Shown here in pieces: positions 8,561 through 56,543 of a stretch of DNA of 64,000 bases. Position numbers and translations under genes: made by a program. Where the stretch lies: positions 186,001 through 250,000 of the forward strand of contig CP142729.1 of NCBI GenBank assembly GCA_036630325.1. Direction: 5' to 3'. How positions within the stretch are numbered: position 1 is the first letter of the stretch; each line of letters begins with the position of its first letter. Source of the stretch: Vairimorpha necatrix (taxonomy: Eukaryota). The notes beneath the pieces were generated by a model. It saw only the letters and a list, made by a program, of their open reading frames with translations. It ran no database searches and was not told the DNA's origin.

Positions 8561-9675
8561 TTTATAATTCTTTTAATTTTCACTTTTCTTTTTTTTATTG
8601 CGAATTCAAAATGGTAGACACCAATAAAAGTTAAAGTAAAACTTCATTTACAACTATTTATGGGAGGCGGTGCAGACTTTATATAATTATCAGGCAACAA
8701 AATATAGTTTTTAATCATTAATCAAAATTTACTTTAATAAAAAATAAAATAGAAAGAATTAAAGAAAATAAACATAACATATTTAATAATTTTCAATAGA
8801 CTGTCATATTCAAAGGGTTGACAAAAATAATGAATTTTTTAAAGGCTACAGAAATTGTAAAATCATTTAAAAAAATTTATAGAAATCTGAAACAATTTTA
8901 TCTGATTGCGTATATGGAAGTTTAATCACGAAAGCCTCTAAAGTCAAAAACCAGGCACATAACTTACTTCTTTTATGCATTAATAAAGAACCAAAAGAGT
9001 TGTAAGACGCATGATTTAAACACTTATGAAATAAAATAGGTCGTTAAAATGACATAACTTAAAGTAAAATATTTCAGAAAATATTTTTTTCCTACACAGA
9101 GCTATCACGGCAAGCTAATTATATATACAACACGTAAATTAATTAAATAAAATTTTGACTATAAAATTATACCAAAAAAAGTGTTCTAATAGCCAAAAAT
9201 AAGACAAGAAAAAAGGCTTTAAAACAATAACAACAAACATTAAAAAAAAAGAACCTGGGATTTTTTAAAAAGAAATAAGACATATTGATTAAGAATACTT
9301 GAAAAAAATGAAATACAAGAGGATCTCGTTAAAATTGATGCAAACCCCTTCAATCTATCAATAGTTATAAGAATGTTTGAACTTAAAAAACGTGAATAGA
9401 GACAGTTTTTAAAAGGCCGTGGAAGTTAATTATGTCCAAACAAATCATTATTATGCTATTTCTTGTTTGAAAACTTTTTTAGAATTTGTTCCGCAAATAA
9501 ATAGAAAAAAATAAAATAAAATATATATATATAATTACCATAAAATATTTGAAATTTTATATTTATTTGTAAATAAAATGTCGCGCGCGCGGGGCGCACG
9601 TGCGCCCAGCCCGCACACGGCCCAATTCCCGCTTTTTGAGCCATTTTTCATTTTTTTAAGGGTGCTTATGAAAAA

Positions 9676-9757
9676 TGGCTCGCGCGGGGATCGAACCCTT
9701 CCTCTTAAAATTTGACCAGTTCGTTTCAGAATTTCTGACCGCTGAGCTAAACTCAGT
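9676..9757 (-). ncRNA. tRNA-like Pol III unit inside the Ginger-like element (not a canonical tRNA)
   Basis: Minus strand has A box TAGCTCAGCGG, B box GGTTCGATCCC, then ...GAGCCA and TTTTT. Acceptor stem does not pair and T stem is only partial. Confidence 0.55.
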
Positions 9758-9831
9758 TATAAAAAAACCTTAAAAATATAAATAAGTTAAAAACAACACC
9801 ATTTTAAAAAATATTTCATAACATCCCTCAA

Positions 9832-11120
9832 ATGGTCTTACCTGTGAAAAACTCGGAAGAATATAAAAATATTCTAGATATTATTGTAGAAAACAAAGTC
9901 GTAAAATATATTTCGAGGTTTTCTTTGGCGAGATTAAGGAAAAAGGCTGAACACTTTACAATTGTAGATAATCATCTTTACTTAAGAGGTATCGACAATC
10001 TACATTTAAAGGTTTTTGCACAAACGGATATTTGTGCGATGAAGTTAGAAATGCAAAAACTTCACGTAGATGGGCATTTAGGTCAGAATGCCCTATACCT
10101 AAAAAGTAAATGTTTTTTTTTTCAATCCCAAGGGAATTGATACGTGATGTTGTACGTGAATGTAAAATTTGCGCTCAATGTCAGCCTTTGAAGACAAAGG
10201 AAAAAATGAAACATATTACAGCAGAATTTCCATGGGAACGCCTAATGATAGATCTTATTGATATGAGATCATACAAGGAGTTTAACGATGGGTATTGCTG
10301 GATATTATCTATTTTGGATGTATATTCAAAATTTGCCAGAACATATCCATTAAAAGGTAAGACAGCTGAGTGTGTTATAGAGTGTTTGGAGGATTTATTT
10401 GAACATTATGGTGTACCTGGGATCATTCAAAGTGATAATGGTAAGGAGTTTAGGAACAAATTGATGTATGATCTTGCATCAAAATATAAAATCCTTCTAA
10501 TAAACGGGAGACCTAGACATCCACAGACACAGGGTCAGGTGGAACGGTTTAACCAAACAATCACAAGGTTATTATCAAAAAAATTAATGGACGAAGAAAC
10601 ATCAGAACGAAGTGAAAGGTGGATTGATTGTCTAAAAAAGGTTACTAGTGTTTATAATCAAGCAGTTCATTCTGCGACTTCTTTTACTCCATTTGAGAAA
10701 ATGTTTAACAGAGCTGGTTACAACACAGTAGTTCGTAAAAATTTAGAACCTGAGAATAAAGTGTCTTTAGAGTTAGATAGAGAAATATGTCCTGTGTCTG
10801 TTGATAATGAAATCGATTGTGTTAAAAAGGAAGAAAAATCTAAAGAAGACTGTGTATTTTCGAGTTACCAAAAAAAATACTTTGCACGAATGGATAGACG
10901 CGCGGTACACAATTCTATTTATGATTTTGAAGTAGGTGATACTGTTTTATTGAAAAAAGATTTTGATAATAATAAAAAAACTAAGAAAAAAAAACTTGAA
11001 TCTTTCTATCATAAAGAGTCTATAGTAATAGAAATTTTATCTAACAATCGAGTAAAGTTAAATTTAGAAGGAAATGAAGTTATAGTAGATTTAAATTTGA
11101 TTAAAAAAATAAAAAATTAG
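9832..11120 (+). CDS. Retroviral-type integrase/transposase (H2C2 + rve DDE core), one frameshift at T10 run 10113-10122
   Basis: HVDGHLG in ORF 9832-10140; CKIC, MIDLID, QSDNGKEF and PQTQGQVERFN in ORF 10110-11120. CCC just upstream of the ATG. Confidence 0.88.
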
Positions 11121-12459
11121 TTTATATATTTTGTCAGTACTTTTACTTATAAGGATTCCCGAACCCAACATATTATCTTGAGTTTAAAAAGATTCCAATA
11201 TCAAAAATATTCCCATGCAAAGAAAAACTTCTGTAAATCTAAACAATTTAATTATCTTTTTAAAGTAAAACAAATCTATTATTTTTTATTCCTTAATTTT
11301 CCTTCGGAAAAAAAAATTGTTCTCACTGCGCTCGAACCCGGCAAAAACTTCGTTTTTGTGCGGGCCGGGCGCACGTGCGCCCTGGGCGCTTGACAGTTAA
11401 TAAATGTTTTTTTAATTTTTTTATGAAAAAAAACTAAAATTAATGAGAAAAGAACAAAAAAATTTAGAATTGTTGTATATATTAAAAAAGTATGTATTTG
11501 AACAAATCAAATATCATTTTCGTTTTGTTAATTTACTCTAAATCGAAAAAAAACTATGAATGCATTTATATAAAAACCTATCTTAAATAAGATATAAAGG
11601 GGAAGAATGGAACATATAACGTAACTTAAATAATACCTTTTTAGATTTGAATGAAACGAGAATTGAAAACTCACTACCAAAGTCTGAAGATTAATAAATA
11701 TTATTGGAATCTGGTTTTTATAATGAAATATGAGGTATTATAGCGACGGGGAAACAACATTGAAAAGCTCATGTGCACTTTAAACAATTATTTTGAGTTA
11801 TGTTTGCCTTTTGAAGAATTTTTTTTATTAGACATAAATGTGCATTTTTTAACATTTACACGTTTTCGTTTTATTACAACCTCTTTTTTTCAAATCAATA
11901 ATTCACGTAAATCACAATTTGTTCGTTTTTACAACGCAAATCTTTAATATTTTTTTATAGACAAAATTTAGTGTTTTTTATTGTCTATATACAAGATTTT
12001 CTGAAATATTTTAAAATATTTAAATTTATAATGACCAAAAACAATTTAGACAATTAAATTCTATGAGGTTATTTATTTATTTTTATGTACTAGACATGCG
12101 TTATAAAGATCAGCCTTTCATCATTTTTCTTATTTTTGCACATATAATTTTCTTTTTTTAATTTTTTTTTTAACGTGACTTTTGTTTCTCGTACCTTAAG
12201 TTCAATGTCGATATCTCTGTCTGCTAGACATCTATAATCATAAATTTTTTTTGTTTTAATTTTACTAATATTGCGCTAGATCATTTATCTAAACCTTCTA
12301 GTCTGTCTAAATTATTTTTACACAGTTGAATTAAACGACTTATTTTTTTTTTAAAAAATTGTTTTTAGTGGCTTTAGTCATAATGAAATTTTTTTACTAC
12401 TTTTTATAATTTTAATGTGCCATTTTTTTTTAATAATCTTATATTAGTAAATTTTTTTT

Positions 12460-13185: not shown

Positions 13186-13439
13186 AAAAAAAATAAGGGG
13201 GCAAAAAATTATTAGCGACGAATGAATTGATTTTTAAAAACATTGAAGTTTGCATTTGTTAAAAAAATTAAAATTGACAAATAATATATTTAAAAAGACT
13301 GTATAAAATTTGTAAAAAACATTAAAGCGATTAATTTTTGATTTAAAAGATTATAAATCAACATATGCTTAAAAATTAAACAAAAAATTTTAATATTTTA
13401 TTTACTAGAGCTTTTATTGGTCTAGTCTTTAATTTTACC

Positions 13440-13735
13440 TCACTGCCGCGCGCATCTGGCCACACCACAAATCAATTGCCTCTACTAAGTTCTTGGTTTA
13501 GATCCTTCCTCGGCGAATCCCACTGGGTTCAAAGGAGATGCTCTCTAATGTCTTCTTTATAATTCTCATTTGAGGATACCTTCAGTACTAGGCCGATGGC
13601 ATTAACATAATTGCTGTGGTATTTTTCTTATGTCATGACGTATGGTATTATTTAATATATTTGTACATTAGGCCCAATTCATTTGCTAAGATATCGTACT
13701 TTCTAAGTTTTTCCTGTTCAACTTTCTGTATAAAA
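13440..13735 (-). mobile_element. 3' fragment of an RLE-type non-LTR retrotransposon
   Basis: Reads QKVEQEKLRKYDILANELGLMY..IPYVMT...IIKKTLESISFE, homologous to the copies at 24.2, 38.3 and 46 kb. Multiple stops. Confidence 0.65.
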
Positions 13736-16583: not shown

Positions 16584-17069
16584 TTATATGGGACCAAAGG
16601 AGTTTATACAGTCTATCTCAGATTCTAATGTCCTTATTAAATTGTCATGTAGACCTTTTATTTTTGTGTGTAAACTTTTAGATTCTTTTTTATTCATCGA
16701 AACAGACTGATGACATTTCGATGTATCAGTCTGTTGATTTGCCGCTTTCTTTATTTCGTTTATTATCTCCTCTATCTTCGTCTTTAGTTCTAAGTTTGTT
16801 ATCATTTCTGAAGTTATCGTCAATACTTGAAAATTTTTATCATTAAATTCCAAATATTCTTTTATCTTTTCTTCTACCTTCCTAAATCTAGTGTCTTCTT
16901 TATAATGTTCTCTTATCTTTTCTTTATAGTCTTTTAGTGCTTGTAAATTGACTTCGTGTATTATTATGAAATCATTTAAGAGATCTTTTGCTTCAAATGA
17001 CTCTGATACTATTTTCCATATGAAACAAGTAAAGATCATTGTAAGAAACCAGAATATAAATTTAAACAT
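16584..17069 (-). CDS. Hypothetical protein with N-terminal signal/anchor and helical body
   Basis: 161-aa ORF with a hydrophobic N-terminus, 24 bp downstream of the acetyltransferase stop. Confidence 0.7.
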   Translation of the reverse strand: MFKFIFWFLTMIFTCFIWKIVSESFEAKDLLNDFIIIHEVNLQALKDYKEKIREHYKEDTRFRKVEEKIKEYLEFNDKNFQVLTITSEMITNLELKTKIEEIINEIKKAANQQTDTSKCHQSVSMNKKESKSLHTKIKGLHDNLIRTLESEIDCINSFGPI

Positions 17070-17093
17070 ATAAAAAAGGAGATAGCTCCTTTT

Positions 17094-17555
17094 TTATATG
17101 TTTAAATTTGTATATTTCATTAGTAAAGCTAGTGCTCCATTTTCATAATATGACACCTCTTTTATAATCTCAAATCCTTGTTTAATATAAAATTCTTTAG
17201 CTTGTAAGTTACTTGATCTTACATATAGACTTATACTCCTTATATTTAAGGAGGTGGCTTCTTCCTTGACTATCTCCATTAATCTTGTACCAATACCATT
17301 TGTCCTGTATGGGAAGTCTACACAGAGAACATGACACTGTAAAACGGTGTCATGTTCTCTAGTATCTTGTATAGTACAAGAAATATTGCCTATTACTTTA
17401 TTATTGTGGAGACAGACATAATGAAATCTTCCGGAAGTATCAAATAGATCATTAAGGAATATTAATGGGACGAGATTCTCCTCAAGATTCCTATTTATAA
17501 GATTTATAACATTATTAATATCAGACAAGATCATCTTTCTGAACTTAATAAACAT
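17094..17555 (-). CDS. GNAT N-terminal acetyltransferase (NAA10/20/30-like catalytic subunit)
   Basis: LCVDFPYRTNGIGTRLM (acetyl-CoA motif A), LYVRSSNLQAKEFY, YYENG. Start at CCCATG (17555). Confidence 0.85.
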   Translation of the reverse strand: MFIKFRKMILSDINNVINLINRNLEENLVPLIFLNDLFDTSGRFHYVCLHNNKVIGNISCTIQDTREHDTVLQCHVLCVDFPYRTNGIGTRLMEIVKEEATSLNIRSISLYVRSSNLQAKEFYIKQGFEIIKEVSYYENGALALLMKYTNLNI

Positions 17556-17767
17556 GGGTAAATCATTCAAAATGTTATATAGTACCAATATATTAATAAG
17601 ATATATTGTACTAATATTATCTAGTTATATATACAATATTATTTTACTATTAAAATTTTTTTTTTTATTTGTGCATTTTTTTACTAATATTTAGTTCATA
17701 ATAATGTACCAATAAGATACTTGTTTCATATAAATTTACATATAAAAATATCATTTCTCTTTATAAA

Positions 17768-19875: not shown

Positions 19876-21365
19876 TGTTCGTGCGCGATCGAATTTTTTT
19901 CTATTTTTAGATCCTAACTACAATTTTTAACATTTAATTTCGGTATTTGTATTTATACAAATAATTGTATATTTATTTAAATTAACTATTTATGATTTTA
20001 TTCAATTACTTAGATTTAATTTATCGATCCCTAAATAAATTTTTGACTCGTCGGGATTCGAACCAGTGACTTTCGAAAAAACGAAGTCCCATAACAACCA
20101 CTTACCAAGTTAGATTATGAACAATTTTTGTATTTATTTATAATTTAGTGCTAAAATTTAAAGCCAGATTTACTTTTTTAACCCATTGAAAGAAGTAAAG
20201 GACTAATTTTAACATTGTCCGCTTGTGAATACACTTAAATGAAATAGAAAAGCCTGGAAATTGACAAAAATTCTAAATAACAGCTAAAAAAGGAATACCA
20301 AAGTTTTAATCAGGTAGACAACATTCTTTTCTTGAAAAATGTATAGGCTAACACAAACGAGTATTTGTGAGTACCATAGTCCAATCTATAAAATAAAAGT
20401 CCCAGGATGTCATTAGAAGCATCGTTTTGGCGCGAACCACCTCTACGATAAGTGTAAAGAAAATTACTTTAGTATATCTAGGTGTTTTGTAAGTGAGGAT
20501 TGCAAAGAATGCAATATAAGCATGCAAGCACAACGCCTAAAAAGATTAGTTTTAGCACATTATCGCTAAGAGACCTTTTGAAAGATTTATTATTGATCTT
20601 ATTGCAATGAGGGCTTATAGTCGTTAAAATGATGGTTTTAGTTGGATACTGACAGAAATAGATTTATTTTTTACATATTCTTTTATCTCTGCTTTGAAAA
20701 CATAATTCGCCGTGGAAGTCGGATCAAGATTAGAATACAAATTTCAAACGTAAAATATTCTTGCTATACTTCAATGTGACAGCGGCAAAGAGTTTAAAAT
20801 GAAACATTAGTCGAATTTTGCTCATTTATGGCAGCCCTTGTCATCTCCTGAGTCAGAACAAGTTGAGAGGGTTAATCAACGTCTATACGTTACCTGAAAA
20901 AAACATTTTACGGAAAATATTATATCAATAAGAACTATCTATCATTCATTTAAAGTTGTTTATGATTATAACACTGCTGTACACACTGCTACAAAAAAGT
21001 CTCTTTCAATTTATCGGCACGGAAGCCTCGGATACAATTTTTGTCTGAGGGATAATGATGATTTTACTGATGAGAATGAAACAAAATCAAACACGATTCC
21101 GGCATGAAATTTAGTGAGTAATAAAAATTGCCTAGCTGTAATCGACAGAAATGTGTATATAATTCTCAGTTGATTTTTCTATTGGGGATTTAGTAGTCGT
21201 AAAAAAAAATTATGACACTGAAATTAAGACAAAAAACTAAAATTAAGTTTTTTTATAGTGAGCCAAGGAAAATAATAGAAATTATATTAAATAACCGAGT
21301 AAGGCTAAAATACGACGGTAATGAAAAAAAGGATCAATGAATTTAGTTTAAAAATTAAAAAAATA
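19876..21365 (+). mobile_element. Decayed second family of Ginger-like integrase transposon
   Basis: Left end TGTTCGTGCGCGATC. Pseudo-integrase GANHLYDKCKENYFSISR..CKEC, IIDLI, QCDSGKEF, QVERVN is colinear with 9832-11120. Right end may be ...ATCGCGCGACA at 22386. Confidence 0.78.
20043..20122 (-). promoter_or_regulatory. tRNA-like B-box unit in the second Ginger-like element
   Basis: Minus strand GGTTCGAATCCCGACGAGTCA, a perfect B box, at the same position and orientation relative to the integrase as 9676-9757. Confidence 0.55.
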
Positions 21366-30914: not shown

Positions 30915-33485
30915 GGGGCATAAAATTAGTAGAAATTTATTGAAAATTGGTCTTTATATTGATTTTTGACATTTCCAATGATAAATATAAAATGTTTTTT
31001 TCGTGATTTAAGGCGGCTTTATATTATTAAAAATGTTATAATGTAAATAGTAATATATGACGTAAAATCTATCGAATTTATATAGTAAAATTTTAAAATT
31101 TATGTATCTTACATCATTTGTTGTCAATAATAAATTAAAGGATATAACGTAAGAAAAATAAAAAAATAAGTTACAAAATTATTTAAACAACACTTAGATG
31201 TTTATGTAGTGCATGAAAGAGCAAAAGCGGCAGTTAAAAAAAATCACTTCTCTTTGTTGTTAGTGTCACTTACTATGTTCCACGCCCTAATAATAAAACT
31301 GAAACTGTGAGATGGAACTACTTTTAATGATCTTTAACTTTAAACTATTTAAAGATTTTTAATAGAACAAAAATACAAAACAAATATAATTCTCGCTTAA
31401 ATAACAAGCTTTATTCATCCCAAGCTTTACTTCTAGTAACAGTCATTTGAGCTAAATTTATAAAAAAATACTTGTACTTTATTCTCAACGTTACTTGAAC
31501 AACTCAAAGTTATGACGTCTAAAGTTTAGTTCTAGTACAAAATAATTGCAAATGAAAACAATGTTTTGCGATAATTATTACATAGAGACTGTTGAAGTGT
31601 ATTACAAATACCATGTAATATCGAAAGTTGTGGAATTTGATCCAAATGAAAAAATGTACAAATGTCATAAAATAATTTAAATAATTTCATCATAGAACTT
31701 TACTCGAATTTGATTTTTAAATTGTTCTAGAATAGGTTTTTGTGCAACGAATAAATTCAGAAATACTTGAGTTTACGTATAAATATAATAAAAAAATTTA
31801 AGTTTTTTGAAGCTTATTGCTTAGAAGCACGAAAATCAAATTAGAAAATTTGCAAAGTTTCGCTTTAAGAAAGAATCGACAGATAAAAAAGAACTTTACT
31901 AGGCAACAATGCCAATACGCTGTTAGAAAATTCCGGAAGGACCAGTCCATTCGGGCCGGTCGCATAATTTTCATTTTATAAGTATAACGCCTAAAAAATC
32001 TAATAAACAAGTTTTGTTAGTAAAGTTATTTTTTAATAAACAAATGTTGAGATAAAAAACTATTAATAGTAGTTGTCAATTATTTTTTTAATTGATTAAA
32101 GCGACTTATTTACACGATATAATGTTAAATAAAATCAAATTAGATTATTAGGTTAGCATATATAGAATACCTAATAACAAATTGTCATAATACCATTATT
32201 AATGAAGAGATTACAACAAATTTTTTTTCACACAATTTCAATCATTTTAGCAATTTACAAATGCAGATAAAAAACAAAAACATGTTTATTTATACGTTTA
32301 GAATTTTTAAATCTTTAGTTATGTTCTTCGGTCCGTTTTGAAAAATTTTGTTATATTTTTCTATACGCGTAATATTTTCAAATCATTAAAATTTCACATA
32401 TAAAGAATAAAATTTTGTCAACGCCAATTTGCTTTTGAATTCATATAATAGTTGAAGTATATATTTTGTTTTAGATCGCTTTAAGAAGTACATAAAGCAT
32501 AAAAAAGAAATAACTATAAATTTGAATGATTACCTACTTGTGCTGTATTTGTCGTAATCAACATGAAACTACAGCTCAGAAAAATTTGCGATGTTTAAAT
32601 ATAACTACCCCATACTTAAACTTATTAATCACACATTCAGAAATTTTATCTGTCCATAAAACAAATAGATACATTACATTTTTGGTTTACTTAGCTATAA
32701 TAATTCCAAAAGATGTTATCTATTTGAGTGAAACGCGTTTTATTTTCTTTTACTCTCAAATCTAGCTTTCAATCTGTATAAATATCCTTCAGATACGTTT
32801 TGAAAAGATTTCTGATTTTATATAATCAAATTTTGTCGCTTATTTCGTGCTCCTTAAATTTTGAAACTACGTGCTAGTCTTGATACCATCCAATAATATC
32901 ATTTATACTTTTGATATTTCTAATCTTTCATAAATTTATCAGTGTAAAGTTAAAATAATCTACAAAAAACATCTTTTAATATATATTAGCTCCGAATCAC
33001 AAAGAACAATCACTGATTGCTGATTATAAAATATTTTTTTAAAATCTTTAGTCTGTTGCTTCTTATATGCCTTGTCTACACTATAAATTGAAATTTACTA
33101 ATTTAACTTTATATAAAATATAAAACATTTGTTTAATCAAAAATTTTATTGAGTTCGTAAATTTTTAGCGCCTCAATTATTATGATTATAAATACGTTGA
33201 AATGGCAAATTTACATAAAAACGCCATACCACGTCCTTTATCGAGTGGACTGTCTTCGCCTCCATCTATATGTTTTTGTTTTTTTTGTATTTGTATTATT
33301 AATTTACTCATTTACTTTTATTTTATCTAATATTTCCAGTTCATTTATTCTTTTCTCTTATAGTGCTTGTAGATCTATAAAATAATGTCTTTTAATGATG
33401 CTCTTCAACTCTACTCGCCTTTCCTCGATATCTTCTTGAGATAGAAGGTTGTTTGTAAAAGTTGATTATCAATTTTTTTTTGCAA

Positions 33486-47817: not shown

Positions 47818-50369
47818 TTTATTGAAAATTTTTTTATATTTCTTCGGAATGTATGCTTATAATTATGTATATTTAAGTTTTACACTTCCTTGAGGTTGAA
47901 CTTCAAAAACTTTGTAAAATATACACTGTGTTCTACTAGGTGAATATGCAGCGTTAAAAGCCTAAAAAGAACAATATGACATAAAAATATTAAAAAAGAG
48001 CGCAACTGTCTACGCCCAGACTTTCATTGTTTTTTTACATACCAAATCCAGGCTCCTACCCATACAGTTGGAAAATGTTTTTTTGCGAATCATGTGCCAA
48101 GAAGTTAAAATTTAAAGATTTATATAAAAAATATTTCTTGAGTTATAAACATTTTTTGTTTTGAATGATTTTGCAATGAAAATTTTGCCCTTATGGTATG
48201 TCTGAAACCTCTCGGCAACATGTGAATAACATTTTAAGATTCATAAGACAGTATTGGCTAATAGATGAAATCTACTAAAAAAGGAATGTACAAAATATCA
48301 GGAATAATTAGATTATCTCTGTACAATTTGCACCTTGACTGCTACAGGTTTGAATTTAAGGATGGGGTGGGACGTAACTTCAACGGGAGTTTTTGATGGA
48401 ACTTCATTTTCTACTCTAAAAGATACCTAACATAAAAATTTGTATCTTCTGTACCCATTCACAGAAAAACAGTTCATAGTAAACCCAAACAAAAATTCTG
48501 TTTGTCAGCTTTAGGGTCGTTAGGTTTTTAAAAATAATTTTCAATTACTTTGAAAGAAAAAAAATGAGAAAAAAAATAATAATTTTAAAGAGGTGACACA
48601 AACCAACGAAACGGGAATTGTAATGAGGAAATTTGAGTATTACTGTCGAAAAGATATGATACAGTCGAACCCCTTAATTGGTTGGGATAAAGGTATAGAA
48701 CATTAGAACTGATAACTAAAATAGTACAACCCCATACTATACTACAACTATGGGATTCTAATAAAGCACATAAAAAATTTGAACAACACGTTAAACGGAA
48801 TAGCTTTAGCTTATCTCGAAGCAGTCGAATCTATCAACGATAAACGTCGTGTTAATTTACATATTGTAGCTTTATAGCGAAGCAGGAGAGACTTTTTATT
48901 TTTTTAAAAAATCTTTTCACATCTTAAATATGGTATTATACCTAGAAATTGAATTTTAAATTTTCTAAAAAGATAGATGCTGAGGAAGATTTACAATCTA
49001 TGAAAATATCCTGTGTGACACGAATTTTATTGGAATTATTATAGTTTTTAGAAAATAAACTTTTATAATTTTTGTTTCTCCCTAAGAAAGAAAAAAGGTC
49101 TGGTCTTAACCCGCCGCCATTAATGTCAATGGTTTCTTTAGTAAATTTTTATCGAATTACGATACTTTAAGTGTATAAAAATTGAAATTATTGCTACATT
49201 GACAATTTATCATCGATGAATTTAATTAAGATCTATCATGAAAAAAAAATCGTGTTTTAAAAACATAAGTGACAATGAAATTTTAACACAAGTTGTCATT
49301 TATTCTTGTATATATCATAGAAAATTTATGGATCACTAGATATCTTGCTGTTATAAGAAGTCATAAAAATCGTAGATCAAAATTTCAAGGAATACAAATA
49401 TGCTTTTGACATACTATCTCGATTCTGAAGACACAAAAATCTGCAATTTTATAAAACACATAGGTCAAAACTGCCATTAAAAATTATTTTTTTTGGAAAG
49501 TAGTAAAGCGAATCCATCAGTAGTAAAATAATAACCTCGGAAAATCTAGGTTCTAAACTGCATAAAATAATACTGTTTTGCAGTCAATTGGTATAATCAA
49601 GACTGCATTTGCATATACTATAGAGAAATTATGAAAAAAATTAATGAAGGGGATCTCAAAATATTTTTAAGAATCTAACATAGCTTAAAAATTTTGAGTA
49701 AATAGTAAAAGTATTTTCATTAGTAGAAAATGATTTTTTTTCATATCCCGATTTAAATTCTTAATAACTTAATACACCGGATTCTACTATATAAAGCGCT
49801 TATGTAAAAGTAATTCAATTACAAAACAAAGTAACTTGTACACGAATTTGTATTTCCAAAAATTGTACAGAAAGGAAAAGTTTTTTGAGAGAAAAAATTA
49901 GAAAAAATAAAGAATATATTTTAGCCTATAAAATGCTTTGCTTGACTCATCTCGTAATGTAACATTTTTAGGATCCTTTTAAATTAAGGAAATCTAAAAA
50001 AATATGAGATCTTTAAAAATTTGTTTTGAATTCCTAAATTACGAACGTAATACTAATTCTGTATATCACACTCTTTAAATTGACGATAAAATTCTTTTTA
50101 AAAACATCTTTATAGTATAATTATTGAAGGATTTGATTTTAACAAAAAAAAGATTATTTATCAATTAAAATCAGCAGATTGAGTTTATACCAGATTCGAT
50201 TTATCAAAAAAATGAAATTGATATCATACAAAAATGTAATAAAATAATAAGAATGTTTATGGCTATTAAGTTTTTTATGTCATCGTCCTTTTGGTTCCAC
50301 TAGAAAAATACCCCCTAAAAAATCATTAAATTTATTAAATATTTTTTAAATAACTAAATATTTTTGTAA

Positions 50370-54195: not shown

Positions 54196-56543
54196 TTATG
54201 GGCAGAAAAATATTTTCGATTTTTGAAAATTGTTTGCTTATATTTTGTTTAAACTGTTATTAATTTGTCTATTGAGTAATTCCTGTTTATTTATGGAGAG
54301 ATCTTCAAAAATAGTGACTAAAGAATAATATTTAATATGTATATATTTTGTATTCAAATATAATTTTATGTTATGTTTTGTTAGTTGTTTTTGAAGCTTT
54401 ATATATTAATGATATGATATATAATTTTTTTAAAATTATGATCAACGGAAAATTTCAATCGAAAATCGAAGAAAATAGTTGTATGTAAAACGAAGATAAC
54501 GGCCATTAGTACGTACACGAAGATTATACTTAATTCTCTATATTTTCTGTCATTGTTCGACAATTGTTTTTTTATAATAGATATGTGGAATCAATTAAAA
54601 TGATATATTTATGATATAACTTTAACACATAGAATGTTTATATTTCTGACAAATAAAATTTTATTAGTTTATAAATAAAAATTATGCTTTATTATGTACC
54701 ATTTTTCTCAGATTATCATTATTTAGGGGCTGTTATGTTTATCAAAACGAAAACTGCAGGAGGGATATTTTTTTATTTTTCTTATTAAATTCAAAAAAGT
54801 TCACATTGTCGAAAATGTAACAATATATTCTTTAATTTTTCATACACCTAATTAATTAAATGTGTGTTATAATTGTTCGTTAAATGTATTTCATGAAAAT
54901 TTTGCCTGGTCATTTGTCACTACATCATTCGGGATAAGTAAAAATGTACTCAAATATATTTGTACTTATACTAACTGTAAAAATCAGTGTTCTATATGAA
55001 CATTAACATGGATTAAGAGTCTTAATAATGATTATAAAAAATTGATATGATGTTTAGACAAGTATATCTTAGTTGCAAGCTAAAACTCGTAACAAAAAGT
55101 GTGAAATAAAAACAAAAAAAAACAAATAGAGTTATTAAAAAGAATTCGATTGTGTGAAATTAGATGTTACCATCCAGAGCAGGATTATGTGATTATAAAA
55201 AAATAAGTATAAATTTATTTAAATATATTTAAACTATTATATATATGCTTGAAAGATAAATTTATAATTTAGATAATAGTTTTTTAATGAAAAGTTTATT
55301 TTTAAATTTTGATTATACTTATTTATTACAGCACATTTAATTAGAAAAGTTCTATTAAAAATTATATCTTTCTACTTTGTGCTAAATAATTTCATGTATT
55401 ATTTTGATCACTACATTAAACCCTTGCCTGCCTATTAAATTTGCAAATGAATATAACATGTATAGTAGCTGAAATATGAAATGTAGATGATCCACATTTG
55501 AATATTTTTGAAGTAATGTATTTTAATGTTTTAACTAGGATATATTTTACTTTTTAAACGTGTGGCATTTTATTTTAATTGTTCATTTAACTATTAAAAT
55601 AAATTTATACATTCGAAAAAATGTCAATTATTTACGTTTTTTCATTTTTTAAAATTTTTGAGATCCATTTTGTGTATTAAAATTTCAGATTTTAATTATG
55701 CTTTTGATTTTGTGAAAAAAATATTTAATACAAAGTCGGTGTATTCGCCTTAAATTTTATTTTTTTGATATTTTTTGCAGCTACTACAAAAAGCTTTTAT
55801 TTCATTACTATTTATCTTGGAGTTATAATCAATTTATGCAATATGATAATAGAAAAACGAAGTTATTTGATTTTGACGTTGTGATAATTAGTTATATTAT
55901 ATGTCGAGCCTTTGTACAATTGTTATAACATTACCACACGATCTATAAAATTTTTCGTTTGTTAATATTCAAATATTGTCGCATTATAATTTTTCAAAGA
56001 TATCATATTTATCAATATGACACCTTCGCTGTTAACTAGGCCTAATTAACATCTATACATATTATAAATGTATTTTCAGGTGTTTTTAATATATGCTCTT
56101 TTGCTATACTCATAAAATTGATATTTTTTCGTTTAAATTTTATTTCTTCGCTATCATTTGTCAGGTTAAATGCAAAAGGTTTAACAATTTATCTTGCTTA
56201 AGTAAATTTAACACATAGTGATATACATATATTGAATAATGTTTTGTGTAGTTACAATATTGAAATCCGGCCTCTAAGCTATTTTATGTCAAACTTTATA
56301 TATTGTATTGGCTCTTGGAAAATCAAACATTATCTCTATTTTGTATACGAAAATAAATTAATTGCATCAATATTACCGCAAATTTATTATTACTAAACAT
56401 TACAAGCCTTTCTAATATAATCGAGAATTTATATTAAATTCGGCGAAAAGTTATAACGTCGATTTTTATTGCTACAATCAAATTTTCTATATTCGCTACA
56501 GTATTGATAACCAATTCTGGGTAATTATAACCCCCCCCCCCAA

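Follow-up and report, generated by a model that had tools for sequence, protein, structure and literature searches.

Why should a transposon whose sole gene encodes an integrase carry, head-to-head with that gene, the promoter and terminator signals of a tRNA gene? The question is posed by element 1, a 1.8 kb transposon at 9579-11395 in a stretch of 64,000 nucleotides from Vairimorpha necatrix (GenBank assembly GCA_036630325.1, contig CP142729.1, positions 186,001 to 250,000 of the forward strand). This whole 64 kb stretch is referred to here as the window, and all coordinates are counted from its first letter. The open reading frame (ORF) list and Pfam give the integrase as the only gene of element 1; between it and the left inverted repeat, on the opposite strand, lies an 81-nt unit with an A box, a B box and a terminal T run. 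The answer that we favour, tentatively and at something short of an even chance, is that this unit would be a lineage-specific cassette for RNA polymerase III (Pol III) and TFIIIC, derived from a tRNA gene and kept for its DNA boxes rather than for an RNA.

What marks the unit as tRNA-derived is the combination of its motifs with the distances between them. A perfect A box lies at tRNA position 8, and the B box matches its consensus perfectly. On the same strand the heptamer GGTTCGA is followed by exactly 15 nt, ending ...GAGCCA at 9676, and then by a run of five T residues (T5) from 9675 to 9671, which by its position directly after the discriminator is a Pol III terminator. Counted by hand, the 15 nt comprise two of the T loop, five of the T stem, seven of the acceptor and one discriminator, and the positions of A box, B box and T run are those of a tRNA gene. 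Such a coincidence of motifs is rare in this DNA. In the 64 kb, the B-box pattern GGTTCRANNCC has two matches over both strands where 0.22 are expected, the A-box pattern TRGCNNAGNGG two against 0.46, and GGTTCGA-N15-TTTT two against 0.05, the last pair both in element 1 and on the same strand; the 22-nt 3' stretch of the unit has one match in the window, with none expected. Three of the window's four GGTTCGA heptamers fall within element 1 and a second, decayed element described below, all antisense to the integrase. The fourth, at 48665, has no tRNA context, and the A-box match at 56271 has no B box nearby.

Each motif of the original prediction is therefore present where it was quoted, and the promoter and terminator geometry claimed for them is borne out, with counts far above chance. 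Two details are to be amended. The letters CCA at the end of the unit are there, but they are not a CCA tail: the count of 15 nt, with the terminator following, identifies them as acceptor positions 71-72 and discriminator 73, all encoded in the gene as they are in eukaryotes. The estimate of about 80 nt agrees with the 81 nt found, but the distance between the boxes exceeds that of a canonical tRNA by 8 nt.

The tRNA fold itself has gone. ARAGORN finds no tRNA gene in the window, Rfam gives no tRNA match to the unit at E<=10, and the 5' CTGAGTT is unable to pair with the 3' GCGAGCC; the unit is thus not a canonical tRNA gene with paired acceptor stem and cloverleaf, as had been foreseen. No Rfam family reaches its gathering score anywhere in the window. 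The sole Pol III-type match, Vault RNA (RF00006), scores 18.5 bits (E 0.28), short of the gathering score of 34, and was rejected. The two small hairpins proposed earlier in place of a cloverleaf can form, but the whole 81-nt RNA folds no better than shuffled sequences (z -0.41). Nor is there any stem covariation, which the original prediction had put forward as a check. Logan contigs from four public sequencing runs (X1, X2, X7 and X16), at least 80% alike to the window sequence and compared over 9300-11700, carry variants at 9726, 9727 and 9734 that break the TCAGAA/TTCTGA stem without compensation. The structure of the RNA does not look selected. A protein search with the 45-aa frame that runs across the unit (9578-9712) found no candidate relative.

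Is the unit an accident of one copy? A second integrase in the window, a decayed relic of another lineage of the same family, argues that it is not. The relic is 35% identical to the integrase of element 1 (tblastn), its aligned segments share 23-67% identity with proteins of the family, and its plus strand holds no ORF of 60 aa or more. Its start is extrapolated from the alignment of residue 26 of the family member P0012 at 20257, and matches reach to about 21328. Just upstream of it, and antisense to it, lies the second of the two GGTTCRANNCC matches in the window, at 20054-20064. Around this B box the geometry is canonical, giving a unit of 73 nt with an A-box-like match at position 8 and the B box at position 52. 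From the 5' end of the unit to the integrase start there are about 66 nt in the relic and 76 nt in element 1, and at their 3' ends the two units are alike at 17 of 22 positions in a hand alignment with two gaps. A B box would arise by chance in 100 nt of one strand with a probability of about 2e-4, by arithmetic from the motif expectation. A B box and an acceptor-like 3' end at the same place and on the same strand in both elements argue that the unit was inherited by the lineage. The remainder of the two 5' regions has no alignable sequence, the relic unit gives no Rfam tRNA match and no fold signal, and no inverted ends were found at the relic. Of all the signals of the putative cassette, the B box is the best kept.

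Inheritance alone does not imply a function. A tRNA gene or pseudogene could have been captured once by an ancestral element and have decayed ever since, with no role, and several of the observations fit such a history: the lost cloverleaf (ARAGORN, Rfam), two units that both fold no better than shuffles, an inter-box region that varies among copies, the degraded A box and terminator of the relic, and more distant relatives that have no unit at all. The difficulty is one of time. The integrases of the two elements are only about 35% identical and their other non-coding DNA cannot be aligned, so that over a divergence this deep a neutral stretch should have vanished. The GC-rich boxes are, moreover, intact in a genome of 26% GC. 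Neutral capture is hard to reconcile with these data, and we judge it unlikely, while a reading to be taken seriously.

The tRNA-like sequence in element 1 is not limited to the unit. Copy B, an inverted tRNA-like 3' half, carries GAGCCATTTTTCAT at 9638-9651, and its last 14 nt form a palindrome, matched at 14 of 14 positions, with the 3' end and terminator of the unit (9668-9681). Together with the 3' half of the unit it is predicted to form an imperfect hairpin of 26 bp (z -4.25). The B box of Copy B has decayed, with three of its nine specified positions wrong by hand count. Copy C is set 18 nt in from the right inverted repeat and points towards the interior of the element. With the full unit, the tRNA 3' half is accordingly present three times, one copy being read inward from each end. 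The description of element 1 as a two-component transposon, made of an integrase and a small Pol III unit, names two parts that are both there but understates this anatomy. A further resemblance is seen at the left end, where 9573-9594 matches the complement of the acceptor 3' strand of the unit (9668-9689) at 77% over 22 nt; the ends of element 1 may themselves have descended from tRNA-like sequence.

This arrangement could be that of subterminal repeats, in which the tRNA 3' half would be bound by the integrase, or by an architectural host factor, when the ends are brought into synapsis, its tRNA ancestry being incidental. Three copies, one for each inverted end plus the full unit, are what would be expected of such repeats, and the 26-bp palindrome linking Copy B with the unit and the acceptor-like outer left repeat point the same way. 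A perfect A box at the right distance, and the geometry of 15 nt followed by a T run, would then be unexplained. Several details of the repeats themselves also disagree: the B box of Copy B is decayed, no palindrome matching that of Copy B and the unit was detected at the relic, and the 14-bp palindrome is weakened at 9638 and 9651 by variants for which no compensating change is listed. We consider subterminal repeats of this kind a live rival, if quite improbable.

Copies of element 1 in other DNA bear on whether the unit belongs to the element at all. Parts of element 1 are held by 20 listed runs from 10 studies, and several variant copies with other flanks occur across the four runs compared; the transposon family is live or recently live. 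In three of the four (X1, X7 and X16) there are contigs that run from the inverted-repeat core into the unit, which confirms the earlier placement of the unit inside the element. Among the variants listed, those in 9638-9763 lie at 9638, 9651, 9657 (a deletion), 9663, 9675, 9705, 9726, 9727, 9734 and 9763, and both boxes and the 3' acceptor part are free of listed variants in the four runs, which is weak evidence. The loose contig ends of X16 were considered as possible transcript ends and rejected: the same ends occur in X7 (guessed to be DNA, X16 being guessed to be RNA), so that they are assembly break points.

The same contigs raise the possibility of an independent tRNA-derived short interspersed element (SINE) or miniature inverted-repeat transposable element (MITE) that entered the integrase element by insertion or recombination. 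Contig depth, which is summed over contigs and is not copy number, peaks in the bin 9705-9785 (178 in X2 and 157 in X7, against 20-40 in the integrase) and is also high near the right end, and past 9793/9794 the contigs that have the unit in common part company and continue as at least two other sequences. Depth and divergence fit either an independently spread unit or sub-families and deletion derivatives that keep the ends, and the peaks at the ends fit internally deleted derivatives equally well. No direct repeat flanks the unit in the window, the relic has its unit at the same position, and the contigs of X1, X7 and X16 tie core and unit together. An independent SINE or MITE is, we think, very unlikely. 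More improbable still is a relic of the tRNA primer-binding site of a long terminal repeat (LTR) retrotransposon ancestor, since the plus-strand stretch TGGCTCGCGCGGGGATCGAACCC does start with TGG, complement a tRNA 3' end and lie upstream of the integrase on its strand, but GGTTCGA is followed in a mature tRNA by 18 nt, CCA included, and in the unit by 15 and then a terminator, as in a gene, the stretch lies 58 nt from the repeat end instead of adjoining it, the repeats are inverted and not direct, there is an A box at tRNA distance, element 1 has no reverse transcriptase (RT) or RNase H, and the nearest long relatives have rve alone or rve with Peptidase_C48, RT-bearing polyproteins being weaker.

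How firmly, then, can a retained Pol III/TFIIIC cassette be proposed? A number of points weigh against it. Transcription and factor binding are predictions from the sequence; none of the 20 listed runs is recorded as RNA, and contigs cannot show transcript ends. The three copies of the 3' half fit a role as DNA repeats as well as they fit a Pol III role. One type of contig has 14-15 differences over 9600-9767, of which about six are among the variants listed; as many of these differences lie beyond the listed variants, changes inside the boxes are possible, and the evidence for conservation of the boxes is weak. A well-covered variant at 9675 (A>C on the plus strand; X7 and X16) shortens the T5 run to T4. 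In the relic, the A box has two mismatches and the unit lacks a T5 run, and the match in motif and position was noticed after the fact, in one extra element. Local alignment of the two units scores 17, which 782 of 1979 random segments equal; it is not significant on its own, and the statistical weight therefore rests on motif plus position.

Further points on the same side come from more distant relatives. None of 113 loci, which are relatives at 25-47% identity or bacterial records, has a unit with A and B boxes beside a eukaryote-type integrase (ARAGORN, regular-expression scan). ARAGORN, run on 88 of the 113, gives no tRNAs, and the regular-expression scan covered others, including the remaining 25. 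One of these loci, L083, also has no tRNA-like unit in the region of about 530 nt upstream of its integrase. The absence of the unit from distant relatives, L083 included, makes it a lineage-specific feature and not a hallmark of Ginger elements, so that the idea of a general trait of integrase-only elements falls away. B-box matches in L094, L097-L099 and L110, several with tRNA-like flanks, were set aside, these being bacterial records unrelated to the integrase family. Comparison of the non-coding parts of element 1 with L001-L082 (blastn-short) gave only chance-level matches. The metagenome scan returned only relatives of 25-47% identity, the viral scans two weak loci each, and the GTDB scan 29 loci, of which a few are apparent eukaryotic contaminants and the rest bacterial. 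Positions 226-2394 of L083 form a 2.2-kb integrase-only element with inverted ends of 26-30 bp starting TGTCG, on a contig filed under a Sphingobacteriales metagenome-assembled genome and probably a eukaryotic contaminant of that bin.

If the unit is such a cassette, its working can be sketched as follows. In one lineage of minimal Ginger-like transposons the remnant of a tRNA gene would have become fixed inside the element. Its tRNA fold would have been lost, while the signals that the Pol III machinery reads on DNA would have been retained: A and B boxes suitably spaced, and a terminating T run exactly where a tRNA gene has it. TFIIIC would bind the two boxes and position TFIIIB between the unit and the integrase start, which stand head-to-head across a spacer of 75 nt (9757-9831); the TFIIIB site and the integrase promoter would both fall there. 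Pol III would yield an unstructured RNA of about 85-90 nt ending at 9675-9671. The selected property, however, would be the complex of protein and DNA, acting as a movable boundary or promoter helper, free of nucleosomes, by which the integrase stays expressible at whatever site the element enters, and the extra half-copies with B boxes beside both inverted ends may add TFIIIC sites at the edges of the element. The stronger proposal, that a minimal Ginger1-like lineage in microsporidia carries an obligatory Pol III/TFIIIC site in cis, with half-sites at its ends, as a boundary or landing pad for each insertion, seems to us on the unlikely side.

Element 1 was predicted to be an integrase-only element bounded by inverted repeats, and this description stands. 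The inverted-repeat arms were computed at 9573-9617 and 11357-11401 and are 84% complementary; within them lie repeats of 39 bp with termini TGTCG on the left and, on the opposite strand, TGTCA on the right, which agree with the pattern TGTNR. Their GC-rich, palindromic core, GGGCGCACGTGCGCCC, has two sites in the 64 kb, both at the ends of element 1, and stands out from the very AT-rich DNA that surrounds the element (window GC 26%). The only other 30-nt stretches of at least 70% GC in the window, besides the inverted ends, are at 13437-13468 and 31933-31963. Loose ends of X16 before 9579, with a different flank in X2, mark the left boundary, and flanks at both ends that differ from those of the window, in the contigs from public runs, fix the ends of the element at 9579 and 11395. 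No target duplication is seen at the window copy, where the flanks read AAAA and GTTA and there is no CCGG or CCGT; the other flanks in the public-run contigs are AT-rich. There is also a variant copy with shorter ends, whose loose ends lie at 9594 (X2) and 11372 (X7), with ATATT ending the left flank and starting the right. If both flanks come from one insertion, ATATT is possibly a 5-bp target duplication; they are unpaired and from different runs.

The integrase, of about 430 aa, is of the H2C2-DDE type (Pfam rve, E 1.9e-13), with the motifs HVDGH...CKICAQC, IDLID, SDNG and VERFN recognised in translation and alignment. In the window copy a single frameshift splits it exactly where homologues read through in the alignment, at a T10 run, and the insertions listed there lie behind 10112 and 10117. 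An extra base at this run in all four of the public runs implies that the window copy is the broken or mis-assembled one and that the family was intact recently; the copy is either a recent pseudogene or a homopolymer assembly error. The family consists of stand-alone proteins of about 420 aa (P0001-P0018), 42-55% identical to this integrase, on contigs of 1.4-2.9 kb, and its named members are from the microsporidia Nosema granulosis, Dictyocoela muelleri and Enteropsectra breve. The nearest long relatives have either rve alone (35-38% identity) or rve with Peptidase_C48 (30-35%), and RT-bearing Gypsy polyproteins are weaker. A C-terminal SH3-like block (KLxSFY...) is conserved in the family alignment; Pfam gives no GPY/F match on the window protein, and gives PF24626 on the relative P0025. 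Pfam finds no Ulp1 or OTU protease domain in element 1, whose protein ends after the integrase part, and Ulp1 is present only in the longer relatives P0109 and P0110. Neither RT nor RNase H was found in element 1 by ORF list or Pfam. The features of both elements are collected in Table 1.

Table 1. Coordinates and strands, in window numbering, of the features of element 1 and of the decayed relic
Feature	Position	Strand	Remarks
Left terminal inverted repeat	9579..9617	+	starts TGTCG; GC-rich palindromic core; ends placed by X16 and X2 contigs
Copy B	9619..9657	+	decayed inverted tRNA-like 3' half, then T runs; B-box-like stretch 9619-9629
T5 run	9671..9675	-	Pol III terminator by position
tRNA-gene-derived unit	9676..9756	-	81 nt, no cloverleaf
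B box GGTTCGATCCC	9687..9697	-	perfect consensus match
A box TAGCTCAGCGG	9739..9749	-	perfect; at tRNA position 8
AT-rich spacer	9757..9831	.	75 nt, from unit 5' end to integrase ATG
Integrase N-terminal frame	9832..10140	+	H-x3-H half of zinc finger
Integrase main frame	10110..11120	+	C-x2-C half of zinc finger, D-D-E core, C-terminal SH3-like part; Pfam rve
T10 run, frame break	10113..10122	+	one extra base in X1, X2, X7 and X16 copies
Copy C	11308..11338	-	GGTTCGA, 15 nt, T9; second tRNA 3'-half-like module
Right terminal inverted repeat	11357..11395	+	ends ...TGACA; X7 loose end ...TTGACA, then different flank
Relic tRNA-like unit	20043..20115	-	perfect B box 20054-20064; A-box-like match, 9/11, at 20098-20108
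Decayed integrase relic	20182..21330	+	many stops and frameshifts; start extrapolated; other lineage, same family

Elsewhere in the window, a 28-nt inverted repeat at 17054-17113, 96% complementary with a 4-nt loop, lies just 3' of the minus-strand ORF 17094-17588.

Which known transposons does element 1 resemble? Ginger1 elements, in the account given in the main text of Bao, Kapitonov & Jurka 2010 (PMC2836005), are 2.6-7 kb long, have TGTNR at the termini of inverted repeats that measure about 40-270 bp, make 4-bp duplications of CCGG or CCGT, and use a Gypsy-like H2C2-DDE integrase as transposase. Judged by that account, element 1 is like Ginger1 in its inverted terminal repeats, TGTNR termini and type of integrase, and in that the nearest long relatives of its integrase have the rve plus Peptidase_C48 (Ulp1) architecture; it differs in its size of 1.8 kb, in having no Ulp1 or OTU domain and in the missing CCGG or CCGT duplication at the window copy. 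It also carries a tRNA-gene-like unit, whereas the word tRNA occurs nowhere in the main text of PMC2836005. For Ginger2/Tdd the same text gives TGTNR termini, AT-rich targets, duplications of 4-5 bp and integrases without GPY/F. Element 1 shares the termini and the AT-rich targets, and a 4-5-bp duplication is possible, given the unpaired ATATT flanks; unlike what is described there for Ginger2/Tdd, its family has the conserved C-terminal SH3-like block, with PF24626 on P0025. The literature searched, supplements aside, describes no tRNA-like unit either in Ginger elements or in microsporidian DNA transposons, in agreement with the original prediction, for which no such description was known in Ginger-type elements. 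The portion of PMC7313128 that was searched has no occurrence of Ginger, integrase, tRNA or LTR.

Other mobile elements are connected with the Pol III machinery in other ways. Like tRNA-derived SINEs, the unit rides on a mobile element and has the A and B boxes of an internal type 2 Pol III promoter, is of tRNA origin and has lost its tRNA function. Those SINEs, however, spread as retroposed RNAs, each with duplications of its own and a tail that is A-rich or related to a long interspersed element (LINE), whereas the unit lies inside a cut-and-paste element, antisense to the transposase, and ends in a terminator of the tRNA-gene type. Ty3, Ty1, DGLT-A and TRE5-A target Pol III genes, as set out in the portions of PMC8632968, PMC10050235, PMC6101501 and PMC5391098 drawn on here. 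They show that Gypsy-type integrases, or elements of compact genomes, can be functionally linked to the TFIIIB/TFIIIC/Pol III complex, as is proposed for element 1; as described in those portions, they land beside host tRNA genes and carry none. With no tRNA gene in the 64 kb, there is no sign of tRNA targeting here. The role proposed for the unit also has a parallel in boundary sites of host chromosomes. At yeast tRNA genes (tDNA), and at the extra TFIIIC (ETC) sites that have only a B box, TFIIIC bound to the A and B boxes, or to the B box, forms a chromatin boundary independently of any RNA. By analogy, the site in element 1 would differ from those fixed host loci in riding on a transposon.

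What would this mean for the family? A link between Gypsy-type integrases and Pol III is known through the choice of target, as in Ty3 and DGLT-A, and a cassette carried along, if it is one, would amount to another solution: the element, living in a very compact genome, would bring a safe, open locus with it instead of landing beside one. On the stronger proposal of an obligatory site, element 1 would be the first known case of a cut-and-paste element that relies on Pol III in this manner. The unit would also be a natural case of a tRNA gene stripped to its DNA-level signals, useful for understanding what A and B boxes do beyond tRNA genes. Should the unit be a neutral relic instead, it would still be a clean marker with which to trace this transposon lineage among the microsporidia.

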